Virus record (IMG/VR): IMGVR_UViG_2881684137_000004
Span: 64,001 to 128,000 of that record
Reading direction: 5' to 3' (one strand)
Source of the DNA: a virus
Lineage: Duplodnaviria > Heunggongvirae > Uroviricota > Caudoviricetes
Length of the DNA stretch: 64,000 nt
The translations under genes were made by a program, and so were the position numbers. Below are positions 26,779 through 54,742 of this stretch, one piece after another. The first letter of the stretch is position 1. Every line of letters begins with the position of its first letter. The notes under the pieces were generated by a model. The model was not told where the DNA came from. It searched no databases and was given only the letters and a program-made list of their open reading frames with translations.

Positions 26779-26864
26779 TACGGATAAAGGGACTTGAACC
26801 CTTATAATAGTTACCTATTGCAGCATTTTAAGTGCTGTATGTCTGCCAATTCCATCATATCCGC
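26779..26864 (-). tRNA. tRNA-Leu(TAA)
   Basis: Acceptor GCGGATA/TATCCGT, D-loop TGGCAGAC, CAGCA-CTTAAAA-TGCTG, long variable arm, GGTTCAAGTCC; no encoded CCA. Confidence 0.9.
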
Positions 26865-26870
26865 TTAGAG

Positions 26871-26944
26871 TGGGCCGTGGAGGACTCGAACCTCCGACTC
26901 CCTAGTTATGAGCTAGGTGCTCTAACCAACTGAACTAACGGCCC
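26871..26944 (-). tRNA. tRNA with CAT anticodon, probably Ile2 (lysidine) rather than Met
   Basis: GGGCCGT/ACGGCCC acceptor, CCTAG-CTCATAA-CTAGG, GGTTCGAGTCC; C4/C5 and CUCAUAA loop are Ile2-like; no encoded CCA. Confidence 0.9.
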
Positions 26945-27003: not shown

Positions 27004-27032
27004 AGTATATATTATCTTTTTAAAGCTGTCAA
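27004..27032 (-). promoter_or_regulatory. sigA promoter for the tRNA cluster
   Basis: TTGACA-N17-TATACT. Confidence 0.8.
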
Positions 27033-27087: not shown

Positions 27088-27438
27088 CTAGATGGCCTCA
27101 CGTTGTCCGAAAGTTAGAAAACTCTCAGTTGTTGCAGTGATATTTTCAATGTCTCCATCAAAAAATTCACCCCATTTTTTAATATCTTCAATATTATTAA
27201 TTGTACGATCTAAATCTTTATAAGTCTTTGAATCTACTGGCAACCCACAAACGTGAATCATAAAATCCAAAAAATTTTCCCGGCTTTGTTCCCACTCTTC
27301 CAATAGTTGATCGTAATTCAATTCATACCCCTCCAAACATACTTTTTTTGTTTTGTCAAGAGAAATTGGAAGGCATGAATATACCTTTACGTTTCTTCTG
27401 TAGTGTTTTACAATAACACTATAGGAAAGAACAAGCAC
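27088..27438 (-). CDS. Hypothetical protein
   Basis: ORF track. Confidence 0.5.
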   Translation of the reverse strand: MLVLSYSVIVKHYRRNVKVYSCLPISLDKTKKVCLEGYELNYDQLLEEWEQSRENFLDFMIHVCGLPVDSKTYKDLDRTINNIEDIKKWGEFFDGDIENITATTESFLTFGQREAI

Positions 27439-27640
27439 TTATTTATGTGTCGGGCGCAATTCGATCATAAATATAGTGTTTTTTTTAAATCAATCCCTCT
27501 TTGATTTAAATTTACCACAATTTATCTCTAATGGTAAAGTGCAATCCATGTACAAAAATACTATCTTTACTATTAGAAAAATATATGCTTCAATTGCATA
27601 AAATGTCTAATCCTGTCGAATAGCTTCAACAAACTACCTT

Positions 27641-28102
27641 TTACCGAAAAACCCAACGTTTGTCGCGTAAACTCTCCTTGACATTCTCATCTACACATCC
27701 CAAATCCTTAAACTTTTTTTTGTTTGGCTTTGAAATTGTTGTGTACATGCCATTCTCAAAATAACATTTACCCATACCTGAACAGTATGACTTAACATTA
27801 TCAATATTAACAATAATTTTATTATCTGAGATAATAAAATTATATTTTTCAAGGAATTTTAGGCACATTTCATGATTCATGCTGTGTTTATATCTTTTGG
27901 CGTTTTTGTGATAAATAACAGTCTCTCTACCATCTCGATCAATGAAATTAATATCATTTATCCATATCCATTCAACTTCATTGGATTCGCCAATGACCTG
28001 CAACAGAGATTCAAACATCTTATTTAAGTTAAGAGTCAGACCTGCTATGTCATCTTTGTATTTATCGATGCTATTAATGACTTCCATGGTAATATTTTTC
28101 AT
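27641..28102 (-). CDS. LytTR DNA-binding-domain protein without a receiver domain
   Basis: WINDINFI...RETVIYH...FLEKYNFIISDNKIIVNIDNVKSY...CYFENG pattern; only ~45 aa precede it. Confidence 0.7.
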   Translation of the reverse strand: MKNITMEVINSIDKYKDDIAGLTLNLNKMFESLLQVIGESNEVEWIWINDINFIDRDGRETVIYHKNAKRYKHSMNHEMCLKFLEKYNFIISDNKIIVNIDNVKSYCSGMGKCYFENGMYTTISKPNKKKFKDLGCVDENVKESLRDKRWVFR

Positions 28103-28120
28103 TAATTCACCTTTTTTATT

Positions 28121-28149
28121 ACTAAGCCGCCAAGTATTGACGGCCTAGT
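28121..28149. other. Hairpin between agrD and lytTR
   Basis: Minus-strand ACUAGGCCGUCAA-UAC-UUGGCGGCUUAGU with G:U pairs. Confidence 0.6.
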
Positions 28150-28160
28150 ATTTTTAGTTC

Positions 28161-28292
28161 TTACTTTTTAACGTTTTTGAGTTCTTCTGGTACTTCTTGT
28201 TTATTTATGAACCAAGCGGAAGCACTCACTGCATGCTCGTATGCAGTTTTTTCAATAGTCTTTGAAGCAAGTTTAGCCACTAATTTTTTCAT
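28161..28292 (-). CDS. agrD: AgrD-like cyclic lactone autoinducer propeptide (43 aa, not in ORF track)
   Basis: MKKLVAKLASKTIEKTAYEHAVSASAWFINKQEVPEELKNVKK; AGGAAGGAGG RBS; amphipathic leader, SAWFI core, EVPEELK tail. Confidence 0.85.
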   Translation of the reverse strand: MKKLVAKLASKTIEKTAYEHAVSASAWFINKQEVPEELKNVKK

Positions 28293-28974
28293 CGATATTC
28301 CCTCCTTCCTCATTTTCTTCAAGGTCTCTTTTATATGCAAAGTACAGTAATGTACCTGTACTAAACAGCAACACTGTGAACATCAAATTAAAAACGTATC
28401 CATTATACTTTTCGACTGAGTACAAAACAAAGGCTCCAGTCGATACCAGAAAAATTAGAATAATAATAAACAATATAAACTTTTTAGTATATTTCTTTAT
28501 TAATCCGAATGGCTCATCCAGATCAAAGGAATAACCTTCATTGGTAATTTTGAGCGTAAACACTGTAGCCACAATTATAAAGAAACAAATCAATTGAATG
28601 AGATAGCCTTTGAAAGTGAAGGCTGCAATATCACTTACTGACACGATTTGGGCAAATGTCAATATTTTAATTAATGATATTTGTATTAGTCCATAAAACA
28701 CATATGATGTTATTGATACCAATGTAGCATGAGACCACTCTCTCTCCAGACTGGCTTTCAACAACAAAGTGTAAATCAGTATCTGTAGAAATGGAGCGAT
28801 ACTGGTTAAATCGAAAATTGTCAAAATTAACGAAAAGCTAGAGAGGAGTAATGATGATAACAGAATTTTTTTCACTCTTGCTAAGTTTAGTTTTATTCTA
28901 AAAAGATATACCCCCAATAAAAAAATTGAAAAATACTCGATTATTGAGAAAAGTATAAAATATATATATTTCAT
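28273..28974 (-). CDS. Polytopic membrane protein resembling an AgrC sensor domain without a kinase domain
   Basis: ~7 hydrophobic segments over 233 aa; ends ~20 aa after the last TM; between agrB and agrD. Confidence 0.65.
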   Translation of the reverse strand: MKYIYFILFSIIEYFSIFLLGVYLFRIKLNLARVKKILLSSLLLSSFSLILTIFDLTSIAPFLQILIYTLLLKASLEREWSHATLVSITSYVFYGLIQISLIKILTFAQIVSVSDIAAFTFKGYLIQLICFFIIVATVFTLKITNEGYSFDLDEPFGLIKKYTKKFILFIIILIFLVSTGAFVLYSVEKYNGYVFNLMFTVLLFSTGTLLYFAYKRDLEENEEGGNIDEKISG

Positions 28975-28980
28975 CTTGAT

Positions 28981-29511
28981 TCACCCAATCATCTTTTTAT
29001 TAGGAATTAGTAGTGTAAGGCTTTGAGCAAAAAAAGAAATAGTTACTGCATCTGAATGAACAAATAAAAAATTAATAGTTACTAAGCTTACTGAAATGAA
29101 TTTAAACAACATATTGGACAAAGCAGGATTCCTATATTGAGAGTCTATATCTCTAGGCGCTAAAATTAATAAAATAGCTATCGATAGAATATTTAAGAGT
29201 GCTGGAATATTATTCATTAGTACTGCTGATAATACGCATATTAGCATACTTGAAACGAGGACACAACTATCAGATTCTTTCAGGTGATACCCACCAGAAA
29301 AGTATCTTAGAGTTGCAAAAGAAATAATAATAATAAGCGTATCAATTGGTCTTCCAATAATAAAACCGAATACCATACTTATTAAAACAACTGCTAACCC
29401 ATTATAAATTATCCTTAACCCATAGTCTAAAACTTCGTAACTCGCAGTTTCTTCTTCGTTTATATTTTTTATGTATTTCGCTGTTTTACTAGATATTTTT
29501 TCAATTATCAA
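28981..29511 (-). CDS. agrB: AgrB-like peptide-processing membrane protease
   Basis: LRYFSGGYHLKESDSC with catalytic His/Cys; start re-called at TTG 29511 after GAGAGGAG RBS. Confidence 0.92.
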   Translation of the reverse strand: MIIEKISSKTAKYIKNINEEETASYEVLDYGLRIIYNGLAVVLISMVFGFIIGRPIDTLIIIISFATLRYFSGGYHLKESDSCVLVSSMLICVLSAVLMNNIPALLNILSIAILLILAPRDIDSQYRNPALSNMLFKFISVSLVTINFLFVHSDAVTISFFAQSLTLLIPNKKMIG

Positions 29512-29534
29512 AACTTCCTCTCCTCTCAAAAAAT

Positions 29535-29564
29535 ATATTACCATATCTTTCAACTTGCTGTCAA
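29535..29564 (-). promoter_or_regulatory. sigA-like promoter upstream of agrB
   Basis: TTGACA-N18-TAATAT with TG extension, in the yopR-agrB gap. Confidence 0.55.
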
Positions 29565-29588
29565 TATAAAATATAAAAAACCTCAAAA

Positions 29589-30560
29589 TTAATTTGAGGT
29601 TCCATAAACTGCTTGAATTGTCCCTAGATTTAAAAATTCATCTTTGATTCGACGTTGGTTTTGGACTCCATTTTCATCGAACTTTTCAAAGACAACTTTA
29701 AATTCTTCCTCATCTAGCTTCCCTGTGACATCATATAATTGCTTTGCTGTATAAAGCATGCCACTATTTATAATATTTCTCGGGATAAAAGATTGTTCAC
29801 CTATTTCATTTGCGATTTTAGTCAGGCGCCTATAAACTATATTTTTATCGGCTTCGTAAAAATTTATTGTCTTGGTATTCGCTGACTTAACTACAAAGTC
29901 ATTTTCGACCAAATTTGCTGTGGCCGATTTAATGTCTGGAGAAGGATTACCATTCATTTTTTCATATTCAGTTTCAGCTGCCGCTTTAAAACATAGTCTG
30001 ATGCAGTTATCATCCACTGTAAGTTCTCTACTGGTCTTATTAGACCTTAAAACTAGTGTATTATCTGATTCTCTTATATCTTTCCTTTGTAGGTTGACGA
30101 CCTCCTGTAGACCGTCTCCTGACACGCCATTAAATAACAAACTTACGACAACAGCATCTTGGTAATTAACTTGATTTTTTATAATCTCATCAATTTCTTT
30201 AGCAGTCCAAAGTGTTTTAGCTTTGGATGTTACAAATTGCTCTTTCCAATCGCTATCCACCGTTAGCAAGGGGTTAACTCCCTTAATATAACCTTTAACA
30301 ATTGACCATTCTATATACTTAGATATCCAACTAATGTTAAACTTTGATACATACGAAGTTCCTGGTTTAAAGCTGTAAAAAAGTCTCTTTAATTCATCAC
30401 GGTCGAATTCTGATAAATCTTTATCTAGAACCATTTCGCTCGTATGTGACAACTTAAAGAACCTCAACACTACCATTTGAGTGCTATTTTCATACTGAGA
30501 TAAGAATTCAACTTTTCTTTCTCGATTAAAAAGCTTATCCATATTCACAACATTACTCAT
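29589..30560 (-). CDS. yopR: SPbeta YopR (MrpR/SroF)-like master repressor, tyrosine-recombinase fold
   Basis: VNYQDAVVVSLLFNGVSG, AAAETEYEKMNG, LVENDFVVK, PRNIINSGMLY match recalled YopR blocks; catalytic R/HxxR absent. Confidence 0.8.
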   Translation of the reverse strand: MSNVVNMDKLFNRERKVEFLSQYENSTQMVVLRFFKLSHTSEMVLDKDLSEFDRDELKRLFYSFKPGTSYVSKFNISWISKYIEWSIVKGYIKGVNPLLTVDSDWKEQFVTSKAKTLWTAKEIDEIIKNQVNYQDAVVVSLLFNGVSGDGLQEVVNLQRKDIRESDNTLVLRSNKTSRELTVDDNCIRLCFKAAAETEYEKMNGNPSPDIKSATANLVENDFVVKSANTKTINFYEADKNIVYRRLTKIANEIGEQSFIPRNIINSGMLYTAKQLYDVTGKLDEEEFKVVFEKFDENGVQNQRRIKDEFLNLGTIQAVYGTSN

Positions 30561-30580
30561 TCAAATTAACCCTCCATCTA

Positions 30581-31936
30581 TCAAAGTAAACCAGCAATCT
30601 TTTCTTCAGCATACTTTTTCAGATTCCGTTTCACCTGGTTACTATTTACTTTGCCTTTTCCCTCAGCGAATAAGACTTTGCTGTATTCACCATCAAACGA
30701 GTAGTCAAATGACTCAACCAATCTGATAATTTCATCCGCTGGGATGTCTTTACCATATTTATCATACAATGCTTTTGCAATTACAAGATATACAACAAAA
30801 GTGTTGTGGTAGTTCCTCAAGCTTGATTTCCTTGCTTTTATTAAAGTCTCTAAATTACTACTGAATTCATCTTTATAACTGTCAACAACGTAATCAAAGA
30901 AATAGACCAATACACTGGCGATATTAATACGATCGGCATTATTTTGTGGATCGAAAATATCTCTTATGCCTTTGGACAATACATTAAAGCTTGTCAGGTA
31001 AGAACGTTTAGAACTAACAGTTGCTTCTTTTGCAATTCTTCCTCTGAGAACCGATTTTCTTTCAATTTCAATTGCAATCTTATCTTCGAGAGTGTCATTC
31101 ATAAGGTAGTTTACAAACGACTTATCAAATTTCGACATTTTATTAATCTGTCCCAAATAGAATCTTGCATCGTCAAAACTTAAGTACTTAATCGCTACAT
31201 CAATTGAATCCTCAAGGTCAGGATCTTGTTCGAGTCTGTTAAGGATTGCAGACAGTCTGTGAAATCCGTCAATAATATACATATCTCCAGAGATGAGTGT
31301 TAGTTCACCAGCATCATATGAAATATCAGATTTGTCATCCATGATGACACAAAAAGTGATAGTATTACTTCTGAACATACCACGTTCCATTAAATTGGTG
31401 ATTTCTTTGACGGATTTAGATATTACTTTAGGCGTTGTTGTTGTATTACCTTTTTTATCAGTCTTTTCTTTAGGTTTACGTTGTAAATCAGTATTATAAA
31501 AAAGTATTTTATTCCATAGTTTCCCAACTTCTTTAAATTTTAAAGAGGTAATATAATCATGTTCAGATGATTGAACAACATAGTTTCCGAATGTATAAGG
31601 TAGCTTCACTTCTTCTTCTTTATGATTCTTTTTGTATTTATTGATGGCACCAATTTGCTTTTGGTTCCAAAAAAACTCTGGGTTTAAATTTTCACTCTTT
31701 GTTGCAATGTAAATTGCATTAACAATAACCCCTTGTTCAAGTGCTGAGTATTGTTCTAATGCTTCTAAATTAGTCAGAATTTCTTCTAGCGTACCAGGGA
31801 GTATTTTGTGCGACAATAAAGTTTCATTGATATTTTCTTGCAAATCTTTATTATTTATAATCTCATGGATCACACTGCTTGAAGATAGTTCTTCAATGAT
31901 CTTAGTGGTTGTTTCTGCTGCTGGCATCTTTATCAT
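30581..31936 (-). CDS. yopQ: SPbeta YopQ (SroE)-like DGQHR/DndB-family protein
   Basis: IIDGFHRL, QR motif, KILPGT, LPYTF; directly upstream of the yopR homolog as in SPbeta. Confidence 0.75.
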   Translation of the reverse strand: MIKMPAAETTTKIIEELSSSSVIHEIINNKDLQENINETLLSHKILPGTLEEILTNLEALEQYSALEQGVIVNAIYIATKSENLNPEFFWNQKQIGAINKYKKNHKEEEVKLPYTFGNYVVQSSEHDYITSLKFKEVGKLWNKILFYNTDLQRKPKEKTDKKGNTTTTPKVISKSVKEITNLMERGMFRSNTITFCVIMDDKSDISYDAGELTLISGDMYIIDGFHRLSAILNRLEQDPDLEDSIDVAIKYLSFDDARFYLGQINKMSKFDKSFVNYLMNDTLEDKIAIEIERKSVLRGRIAKEATVSSKRSYLTSFNVLSKGIRDIFDPQNNADRINIASVLVYFFDYVVDSYKDEFSSNLETLIKARKSSLRNYHNTFVVYLVIAKALYDKYGKDIPADEIIRLVESFDYSFDGEYSKVLFAEGKGKVNSNQVKRNLKKYAEEKIAGLL

Positions 31937-32030
31937 CTCCTCAACAAACTGTAAATATTTTTGTATATAAAAACAATTATATCACAATCATAAAAAAATA
32001 TACACAATTAACGCAATAATTACGCGTCAA

Positions 32031-32291
32031 TTATGTATATTGATCCTTTTGAACTATTTCTATGTTCACACTTTCGACGAAAACCCAGTTATTATCTGTA
32101 TTTTCATAAACATTTATTACGGCAGGAACGTTGTATGAATAGTGTGATAACTGAGTTTGCTTAATCAACTTCTTCGCTGCAAACAAAACTGTATATTTCG
32201 TTTGTGCATAGAAAGGATAAACCTTTACCCCTTTCATTTCAACTTCGCTCTTGAATTTAGATTTTTTCATCTCATTTAATCCTTTTTTCAA
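32031..32291 (-). CDS. Hypothetical protein
   Basis: ORF track. Confidence 0.5.
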   Translation of the reverse strand: MKKGLNEMKKSKFKSEVEMKGVKVYPFYAQTKYTVLFAAKKLIKQTQLSHYSYNVPAVINVYENTDNNWVFVESVNIEIVQKDQYT

Positions 32292-54259: not shown

Positions 54260-54625
54260 TTAATTTAGTTTGCGTCCAACACTTATATCAAGAGCGTCAA
54301 ATACTTTTTCCATGTCTTCTTCAGAGATTTCTGTCTTTTTTTCAATCAAACGATCTTTATCGATCGTTCTTAGTTGTTCAGCTAGCACATAACTATCGTG
54401 CTCTAATTTGTTTTTATCTTTATCCAAAAAAACATGAGTTGGCATTAGTTTTTTTACTTTTGTTGTTAGGCAAGCCACTACAGTAGTAGGGCTAAAACGG
54501 TTGCCGATATCATTTTGAACAATTAATACAGTTCTCAAACCTCCCTGCTCCGAACCAACCACTCCAGACATGTCAGCATACCATACTTCTCTTCTTTTAT
54601 AGGTTCTCATTTTTATGTACCTCAT
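54260..54625 (-). CDS. mazF: PemK/MazF-family endoribonuclease (NdoA-like)
   Basis: VWYADMSGVVGSEQGGLRTVLIVQNDIGNRFSPTTVVACLTT. Confidence 0.92.
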   Translation of the reverse strand: MRYIKMRTYKRREVWYADMSGVVGSEQGGLRTVLIVQNDIGNRFSPTTVVACLTTKVKKLMPTHVFLDKDKNKLEHDSYVLAEQLRTIDKDRLIEKKTEISEEDMEKVFDALDISVGRKLN

Positions 54626-54683: not shown

Positions 54684-54742
54684 TGGAACAAATGTTCTAT
54701 TTTATTTTAAGTCAATACTCATCTTTGTAACAACAATTAATA

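Follow-up and report, generated by a model that had tools for sequence, protein, structure and literature searches.

A kinase-less agr-type cassette directly behind the mrpR repressor gene of a giant SPbeta-like Paenibacillus prophage: a candidate signal for lysogeny

Can a giant SPbeta-like phage carry a peptide signal of its own beside its master repressor, and might that signal tune the choice between lysogeny and lysis? The question is raised by a 64,000-nt stretch of IMG/VR record IMGVR_UViG_2881684137_000004 (positions 64,001 to 128,000, hereafter the window), which corresponds to G000:C22:248198-312197 in a 7.7-Mb genome of 48% GC that is 100% complete. Within the span 27641-31936 of the window, four genes encoding AgrB, a membrane protein (Mem), AgrD and a LytTR-only protein, with no kinase, form a cassette behind a homologue of the repressor gene mrpR. 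In the SPbeta family, yopR (MrpR/SroF) encodes the master repressor and arbitrium peptides control lysis and lysogeny. A sequence-only reading of the window had proposed that this phage uses a cyclic lactone instead of arbitrium. Below we describe a cassette that lies immediately behind mrpR at about 16 loci, and we put forward, tentatively and with a chance of being right that we place a little short of even, that it is a self-contained phage-borne peptide-signalling module whose density signal would bias lysogeny versus lysis.

The cassette and the adjoining repressor genes

Every gene in the 27-32 kb interval of the window is on the minus strand and co-oriented. The mrpR homologue (30560..29589, minus strand) encodes a 323-aa protein with a recombinase fold, identified by Pfam and PHROG as a MrpR/YopR-like master-repressor homologue. 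Both terminal domains are matched well above the Pfam cut-offs of 27 bits (MrpR_N_CB, 82.8 bits, 2.8e-23; MrpR_C_cat, 79.9 bits, 2.9e-22), the protein matches PHROG 5830 (E 3e-64), and it shares 30% identity with SPbeta YopR. Ahead of it lies a yopQ-like gene (31936..30581, minus strand) for a 451-aa DndB/DGQHR-like protein (PHROG 5732, E 1e-69) that is 28% identical to SPbeta YopQ by tblastn; the Pfam DndB match, at 26.5 bits, is under the cut-off. With both MrpR terminal domains present and yopQ ahead, the pair has the make-up of an SPbeta-type repressor module. Its likely promoter, read from the sequence, is an extended -10 element, TGaTATAAT (31976..31984, minus strand), and a terminator found by terminator scan (32041..31997) lies just before it. 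No arbitrium-like genes were found upstream of this promoter.

The mrpR stop codon at 29589 is separated by exactly 77 bp from the likely TTG start of agrB at 29511. The co-oriented arrangement of yopQ-like gene, yopR-like gene and then 77 bp to agrB, as described in the sequence-only reading, is thus confirmed, with the identities now supported by Pfam and PHROG. Behind agrB the same span holds three further genes that this reading did not list, for Mem, AgrD and the LytTR-only protein. The gap contains both an intrinsic terminator that overlaps the mrpR stop codon (29603..29577, minus strand; an 11-bp stem followed by a T run) and, after it, a promoter found by sequence scan, TTGACA-N18-TGgTAATAT (29564..29535, minus strand), which combines a consensus -35 with an extended -10.

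The agrB gene (29511..28981, minus strand), preceded by the ribosome-binding site AGGAGAGGAAG, encodes a 176-aa peptidase that matches Pfam AgrB (1.7e-20; 73.6 bits against a cut-off of 23) and PHROG 10353. The protein carries the motif RYFSGGYH-x6-C, and its catalytic His and Cys are conserved in alignment with relatives. The agrD gene (28292..28161, minus strand) overlaps the end of the Mem gene, has a strong ribosome-binding site (GGAAGGAGGG), and encodes a 43-aa precursor, MKKLVAKLASKTIEKTAYEHAVSASAWFINKQEVPEELKNVKK, that passes the cut-off of the NCBIfam AgrD model TIGR04223 (19.5 bits, cut-off 19). When the peptide is aligned by its EVPEEL tail with staphylococcal AgrD, a Ser falls in the ring position and the ring reads S-A-W-F-I. 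Because the peptide has no Cys and Ser occupies the ring position, its product is predicted to be a Ser-lactone with the ring SAWFI. That the phage makes an agr-type lactone signal of its own is, as judged from these genes, well supported.

The last gene of the cassette (28102..27641, minus strand) encodes a 153-aa DNA-binding protein (Pfam LytTR, 3e-8; PHROG 15081). The LytTR domain covers residues 45-134, which leaves no room for a receiver domain, and none is present. No kinase gene is present in the cassette. The four frames are intact and translationally coupled, and they stand behind their own strong promoter with good ribosome-binding sites. A decaying remnant with no current function is very improbable: against it stand the intact frames, the ribosome-binding sites and the retained catalytic residues, as well as the conservation of the cassette at many loci and the intact-looking prophage that carries it, both described below.

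The seven-helix protein Mem

Mem (28974..28273, minus strand; 233 aa, seven helices; PHROG 15604) is a candidate signal receptor or anti-regulator. Pfam matched neither Mem itself nor, with any consistency, any one family across 138 of its relatives, and no kinase domain was detected by Pfam in the 233-aa protein. A profile search of 1.84 billion cluster representatives recovered 628 relatives, nearly all of them stand-alone proteins of 205-240 aa, and Mem therefore represents a distinct family and not truncated kinases. Against the N-terminal sensor regions of two AgrC-like host kinases, hhalign gave Mem a probability below 1%. An AlphaFold (AF2) model built from 138 sequences is a seven-helix bundle of high confidence (pLDDT 93, pTM 0.90), for which Foldseek and VIA-align found no fold relative among the Swiss-Prot AlphaFold database models and 48,161 PDB chains. 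A Foldseek search of the PDB with the first, low-confidence model alone had likewise given no match. A resemblance of that first model to the membrane domain of SpoIIGA (TM about 0.45) disappeared with the pLDDT-93 model. A word-index protein search with Mem returned only Mem itself, and a scan of genome contigs with the single Mem sequence returned no match. Wherever a sampled context reaches far enough, AgrB and its small peptide gene are accompanied by Mem and the LytTR-only protein.

Conservation of the cassette behind mrpR

The position of the cassette was followed across a sample of 300 genomes of the host family, 26 of which carry MrpR homologues; an HMM scan of 29 other MrpR loci in this sample found the cassette directly after mrpR in five. 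Among usable loci from named genomes (n = 14), seven carry it. Four of these seven are new (P. oleatilyticus, P. filicis, Paenibacillus sp. FSL H7-0331 and P. radicibacter), and the other three (Paenibacillus sp. GCM10027627, P. xylaniclasticus and P. illinoisensis) were already in the family sample. The cassette also lies behind mrpR in all three related IMG/VR viral contigs (127-179 kb), and MrpR adjoins the cassette in three metagenome contigs reached via Mem. Altogether the cassette stands immediately behind mrpR at about 16 loci. Conserved placement, the absence of which had been named in advance as a finding that would speak against a lysogeny signal, therefore held.

Across the cassette-bearing loci, MrpR identity falls to about 30%, and two gene orders are found. 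AgrB comes first in the window and its clade, and Mem comes first in a distant clade whose MrpR is about 30% identical. The occurrence of two orders behind mrpR argues for repeated assembly at this site. The same four genes are present between the integrase and a CI-type repressor in the Brevibacillus phages Abouo, Davies and Emery, which are of unrelated architecture. That the cassette is repeatedly found in lysogeny modules is what argues most strongly for its taking part in the phage decision. It also bears on the leading alternative, that the cassette is an accessory (moron) module that alters the host and has no part in the lysis-lysogeny choice: an accessory gene set would not readily account for the recurrence of the exact site behind mrpR in deeply diverged phages and with either gene order, or for a second linkage, to a CI module in unrelated Brevibacillus phages. 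That the signal tunes lysogeny is plausible, the support for it being this conserved placement.

Two of the related prophages, in Paenibacillus sp. GCM10027627 and P. xylaniclasticus (L041 and L042), have the AgrB-first order and a small peptide that is not AgrD-like. These peptides have a signal-peptide-like N-terminus, end in ...KVWLFCDNKK or ...KFWIFCDLEK and have no EVPxEL tail, which suggests a different maturation route. Several related prophages have a second LytTR-only gene, either close to the cassette or upstream of yopQ at a distance of some kilobases (L072, 8565-9047; L075, 8460-8891; L044, 17489-17836; L047, 16913-17254). In L075 a TTCGACA motif, of the kind discussed below, lies upstream of this second gene.

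Absence of arbitrium

The sequence-only reading had seen no AimR-like receptor or aimP upstream of the cassette, and wider searches agree with it. The AimR family PF22871 had no match anywhere in the complete 7.7-Mb genome, SPbeta AimR as a tblastn query had no match, and no TPR_12 protein was found within the prophage. The AimR model also gave no match in ten related lysogens, nor in 301 genomes of the host family, while the positive control, Bacillus subtilis, did match. The absence of AimR is real but family-wide, and is not particular to the cassette-bearing phages. Because AimR is missing from all 301 genomes while the cassette is present at five of 29 MrpR loci, the cassette is optional and not a one-for-one replacement. 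Of the proposal that a cyclic lactone serves instead of arbitrium, the predicted lactone and the missing AimR stand, and the word "instead" claims too much for a cassette that is optional in the family.

The region following the cassette

In a cassette-less relative (L037), the promoter behind the mrpR terminator drives p77 directly. In the window the same promoter drives the cassette instead, and p77 (27321..27088, minus strand; 77 aa) now lies behind the cassette, as the first gene after it, with a new regulatory region; in cassette-less relatives p77 follows mrpR directly. Neither Pfam, PHROGs nor NCBIfam assigns the p77 protein to a family, and no Atlas neighbour of it is informative. The 254-nt leader of p77 is weakly structured (z -2.2), and the inverted pair of AACACTATA at 27415-27480 has no second copy in the window. 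The new regulatory region contains a tandem repeat, TTCGACAggaTTAGACA (27620..27604, minus strand), that equals two head-to-tail Spo0A 0A boxes on the opposite strand. The repeat overlaps the -35 of the next promoter-like site, TAGACA-N18-TATATT (27609..27580, minus strand; sequence scan), which faces p77.

The repeated motif, TTCGACA, reads TGTCGAA on the opposite strand, which is the sequence of the Spo0A 0A box. It occurs just 3' of the LytTR gene in 13 of 14 MrpR-linked cassettes, often in tandem with a 10-bp period; cassette-less relatives lack it downstream of mrpR, the control sequence there giving one match in 6.4 kb. The tandem site is the sole one in the 218-kb prophage and one of five genome-wide. 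Three other AT-rich host sites, with arrays of TCGACAA repeats similar to that behind the cassette, are present at G000:C21:27948, C32:9699 and C39:36479, none of them near a LytTR gene, a distribution that fits a Spo0A regulon rather than a LytTR regulon.

The motif was first favoured as the operator of the LytTR protein, on the basis of 10 matches against 0.36 expected for a motif picked after seeing the data. This assignment was downgraded in view of the identity with the 0A box, the mostly 10-bp period and the constancy of the motif despite LytTR divergence. A further ground is that reported LytTR sites have the form 9 bp-12 bp-9 bp (PMC6193735).

Phages of the Mem-first clade have a LexA box beside the TTCGACA motif. 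No LexA box was found near the cassette in the window, unlike in phages of the L044 group. Taken together, the 0A-box-like repeats of the window and the LexA box of the other lineages make the stretch that follows the cassette resemble a hub where host-state inputs converge. The window has a single perfect LexA box, GAACAAATGTTC (54686-54697), which lies elsewhere, about 60 bp upstream of a gene for a MazF-like protein (54260-54625), and would place that toxin under DNA-damage control. Relatives in the same phage family use host MazEF in their decision.

A 9-mer, AAATACATA, is present in 46 copies in the prophage (G000:C22:185000-403000), against about nine expected, with sites in the window that include 24558, 25620, 26610 and 29470. 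Nearly all copies are co-oriented with transcription, and they often lie about 10 nt past a TATAAT, just upstream of early genes. The 9-mer also follows the cassette promoter in the relatives L044, L055 and L065. It could be a master-repressor (SPBRE-like) operator or an early-promoter element.

Chromosomal copies and the case for an accessory module

Several observations weigh against a part for the cassette in the phage's own decision. The host chromosome carries two further kinase-less cassettes of Mem, AgrB, AgrD and a LytTR-only protein (L004, G000:C61:15610-19041; L006, G000:C33:248880-252269), and another genome has the cassette among metabolic genes with no phage context. Four close relatives (MrpR 42-53% identical) are without the cassette, as are most MrpR prophages of the family, and the cassette is dispensable for the MrpR switch. 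The cassette promoter appears constitutive, and immunity regions are classic sites for accessory genes expressed from a prophage. The TTCGACA motif is invariant although the LytTR proteins are only 25-32% identical; because the motif stays constant while these proteins diverge, host Spo0A is somewhat the more likely binder, ahead of the LytTR protein. A search near the cassette and near p77, in the window and four close relatives, found no LytTR-type repeats (9-bp repeats with an 11-13 bp spacer, matching at 8 of 9 positions or more). The repeat sequences of LytTR systems are poorly conserved between systems (PMC6193735).

These are also the points that favour the accessory alternative, under which the cassette would act on sporulation timing, on competition or by interference with the host paralogues. 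The cassette family is common on chromosomes without phage context, the host has two paralogues, one of them with a similar peptide, the cassette is optional among close relatives and has a constitutive-looking promoter in an immunity region, and the 0A-box-like repeats link this site to the control of sporulation. The phage did not take the genes from its host recently, since the phage cassette proteins share only 22-37% identity with the host copies. With this and the recurrent siting described above on the other side, we consider the accessory role possible and, on balance, doubtful.

The likeness of the peptides calls for a separate explanation to be considered. The peptide of the host C33 cassette ends ...LTGSYFLINKPEIPEEL and resembles that of the phage (SYFLI-NKP-EIPEEL in the host, SAWFI-NKQ-EVPEEL in the phage), and this likeness makes cross-talk possible. 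The phage might accordingly eavesdrop on, or jam, the kinase-less agr signals of its host, reading host density and not phage density, either because Mem and the LytTR protein respond to host peptides or because the phage peptide blocks host receptors; two host cassettes of the same architecture and the shared ring and tail motifs are what such a function would lead one to expect. Pure eavesdropping would not need the phage's own synthase and precursor, however, and the receptor is only 22-26% identical to the host paralogues of Mem. We regard this explanation as unlikely.

Prophage context

The cassette locus is enclosed by a low-GC block (about 33% GC) that occupies roughly 184-402 kb of contig G000:C22 and opens with a large serine recombinase. 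The block also encodes a DNA polymerase, terminase, portal, a 1878-aa tape measure and tail proteins. Because this low-GC block carries recombinase, replication, packaging and tail genes, we judge it to be an intact-looking prophage of about 218 kb with an SPbeta-like layout, and from its gene content it looks complete. Named Paenibacillus genomes encode the nearest relatives of its MrpR protein, and the host of this giant SPbeta-like prophage is a Paenibacillus. None of 50,697 phage records matched the region in a nucleotide search, and PADLOC found no defence system. An Rfam scan returned two tRNAs only; these tRNA-Met and tRNA-Leu genes (window 26779-26944) lie between p77 and the recombination and replication genes, and have their own strong promoter (27032..27004).

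A proposed signalling circuit

Under the reading that we favour, AgrB would process the 43-aa AgrD into a secreted cyclic Ser-lactone with the predicted ring SAWFI. Mem would sense the peptide and set the amount of LytTR-only regulator that is free to bind DNA, without phosphotransfer. Such wiring would resemble a LytTR regulatory system joined to an agr-type signal factory. The module sits in the immunity region, flanked by the mrpR terminator and the promoter on one side and by p77, the first early gene, on the other, and the p77 promoter region may take host-state inputs as well. The density of infected cells or lysogens, reported in this way, would most likely bias maintenance of lysogeny versus lytic growth, which would make the module a functional analogue of arbitrium. 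Gene identities, synteny and the lack of AimR are observed; the receptor role of Mem, its coupling to the regulator without a phosphorelay and any influence on the lysis-lysogeny choice are inferred. The fuller proposition, that in Paenibacillus SPbeta-like phages a lactone read by Mem gates a bare LytTR protein without phosphorylation, and that this is combined with Spo0A and SOS inputs at the p77 promoter to set lysogeny versus lysis, is possible, and we hold it with some doubt.

Arbitrium is the best-understood case of phage-to-phage signalling. If the proposed circuit is true, the cassette would be a second phage "language", independently evolved and unrelated to arbitrium, and its signal would be the first of agr type to be read by a receptor that is not a kinase. 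A second peptide system, made of other components and fixed beside the same master repressor, would mean that communication between phages arose on more than one occasion. With a single peptide, a single membrane protein and a single DNA-binding protein, its circuit would be simple and open to testing, and it would show kinase-free sensing of an agr-type peptide, which is relevant to hundreds of chromosomal cassettes of the same family.

Comparison with known systems

Literature searches turned up neither a paper on this cassette in phages of the SPbeta type nor any functional study of it. Agr genes in phages are known from phiCDHM1 (agrC-agrB-agrD; PMC3901668), and the same paper remarks in passing that Davies, Emery and Abouo have AgrB and AgrD together with membrane proteins that lack a kinase domain (Hargreaves et al. 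2014, PMC3901668). The latter three are the closest counterparts of the window cassette. Abouo (gp44-47), Davies and Emery carry all four parts inside the lysogeny module: AgrB, its membrane-protein partner (about 220 aa), a short peptide resembling AgrD, and a LytTR-only protein (about 122 aa). Their AgrB and LytTR proteins are 34% and 32% identical to those of the window. The Brevibacillus order is Mem-AgrB-AgrD-LytTR, whereas that of the window is AgrB-Mem-AgrD-LytTR. The Brevibacillus cassettes have no TTCGACA element downstream, and their LytTR partner is annotated as "peptidase". The genomes that carry them are 45-58 kb in size with an integrase and a CI-type repressor, in contrast to the MrpR-type giant described here.

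Canonical agr (agrBDCA of Staphylococcus aureus; phiCDHM1) shares with the cassette the His and Cys of AgrB, the LytTR output domain, and an AgrD whose leader is amphipathic and whose EVPxEL tail is acidic. It differs in having the AgrC kinase (HisKA/HATPase_c_5) and the AgrA receiver, both absent from the cassette, and in a ring Cys where the window peptide has Ser. No sequence or fold similarity was detected between Mem and AgrC sensors.

In LytTR regulatory systems a bare LytTR regulator is partnered by a membrane protein that inhibits it, and the paper that describes them makes no connection to agr (PMC6193735). HdrRM and BrsRM of Streptococcus mutans (PMC6193735) resemble the cassette in having a LytTR-only regulator beside a polytopic membrane protein, and signalling by the window pair would likewise use no phosphorylation. 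The window operon differs in that it includes a peptide synthase and precursor, its regulator gene is last and not first, Mem is of a different family that has no Pfam entry, and no autoregulatory 9-12-9 bp direct repeats were found.

Like the cassette, arbitrium (AimR-AimP-AimX) is a secreted-peptide system near yopQ-yopR/mrpR in phages of the same architecture. It has a cytoplasmic TPR receptor and a linear hexapeptide, and no part of it is homologous to the cassette. The two also differ in their placement around the repressor genes, with arbitrium upstream of yopM-R and the window cassette downstream of mrpR.

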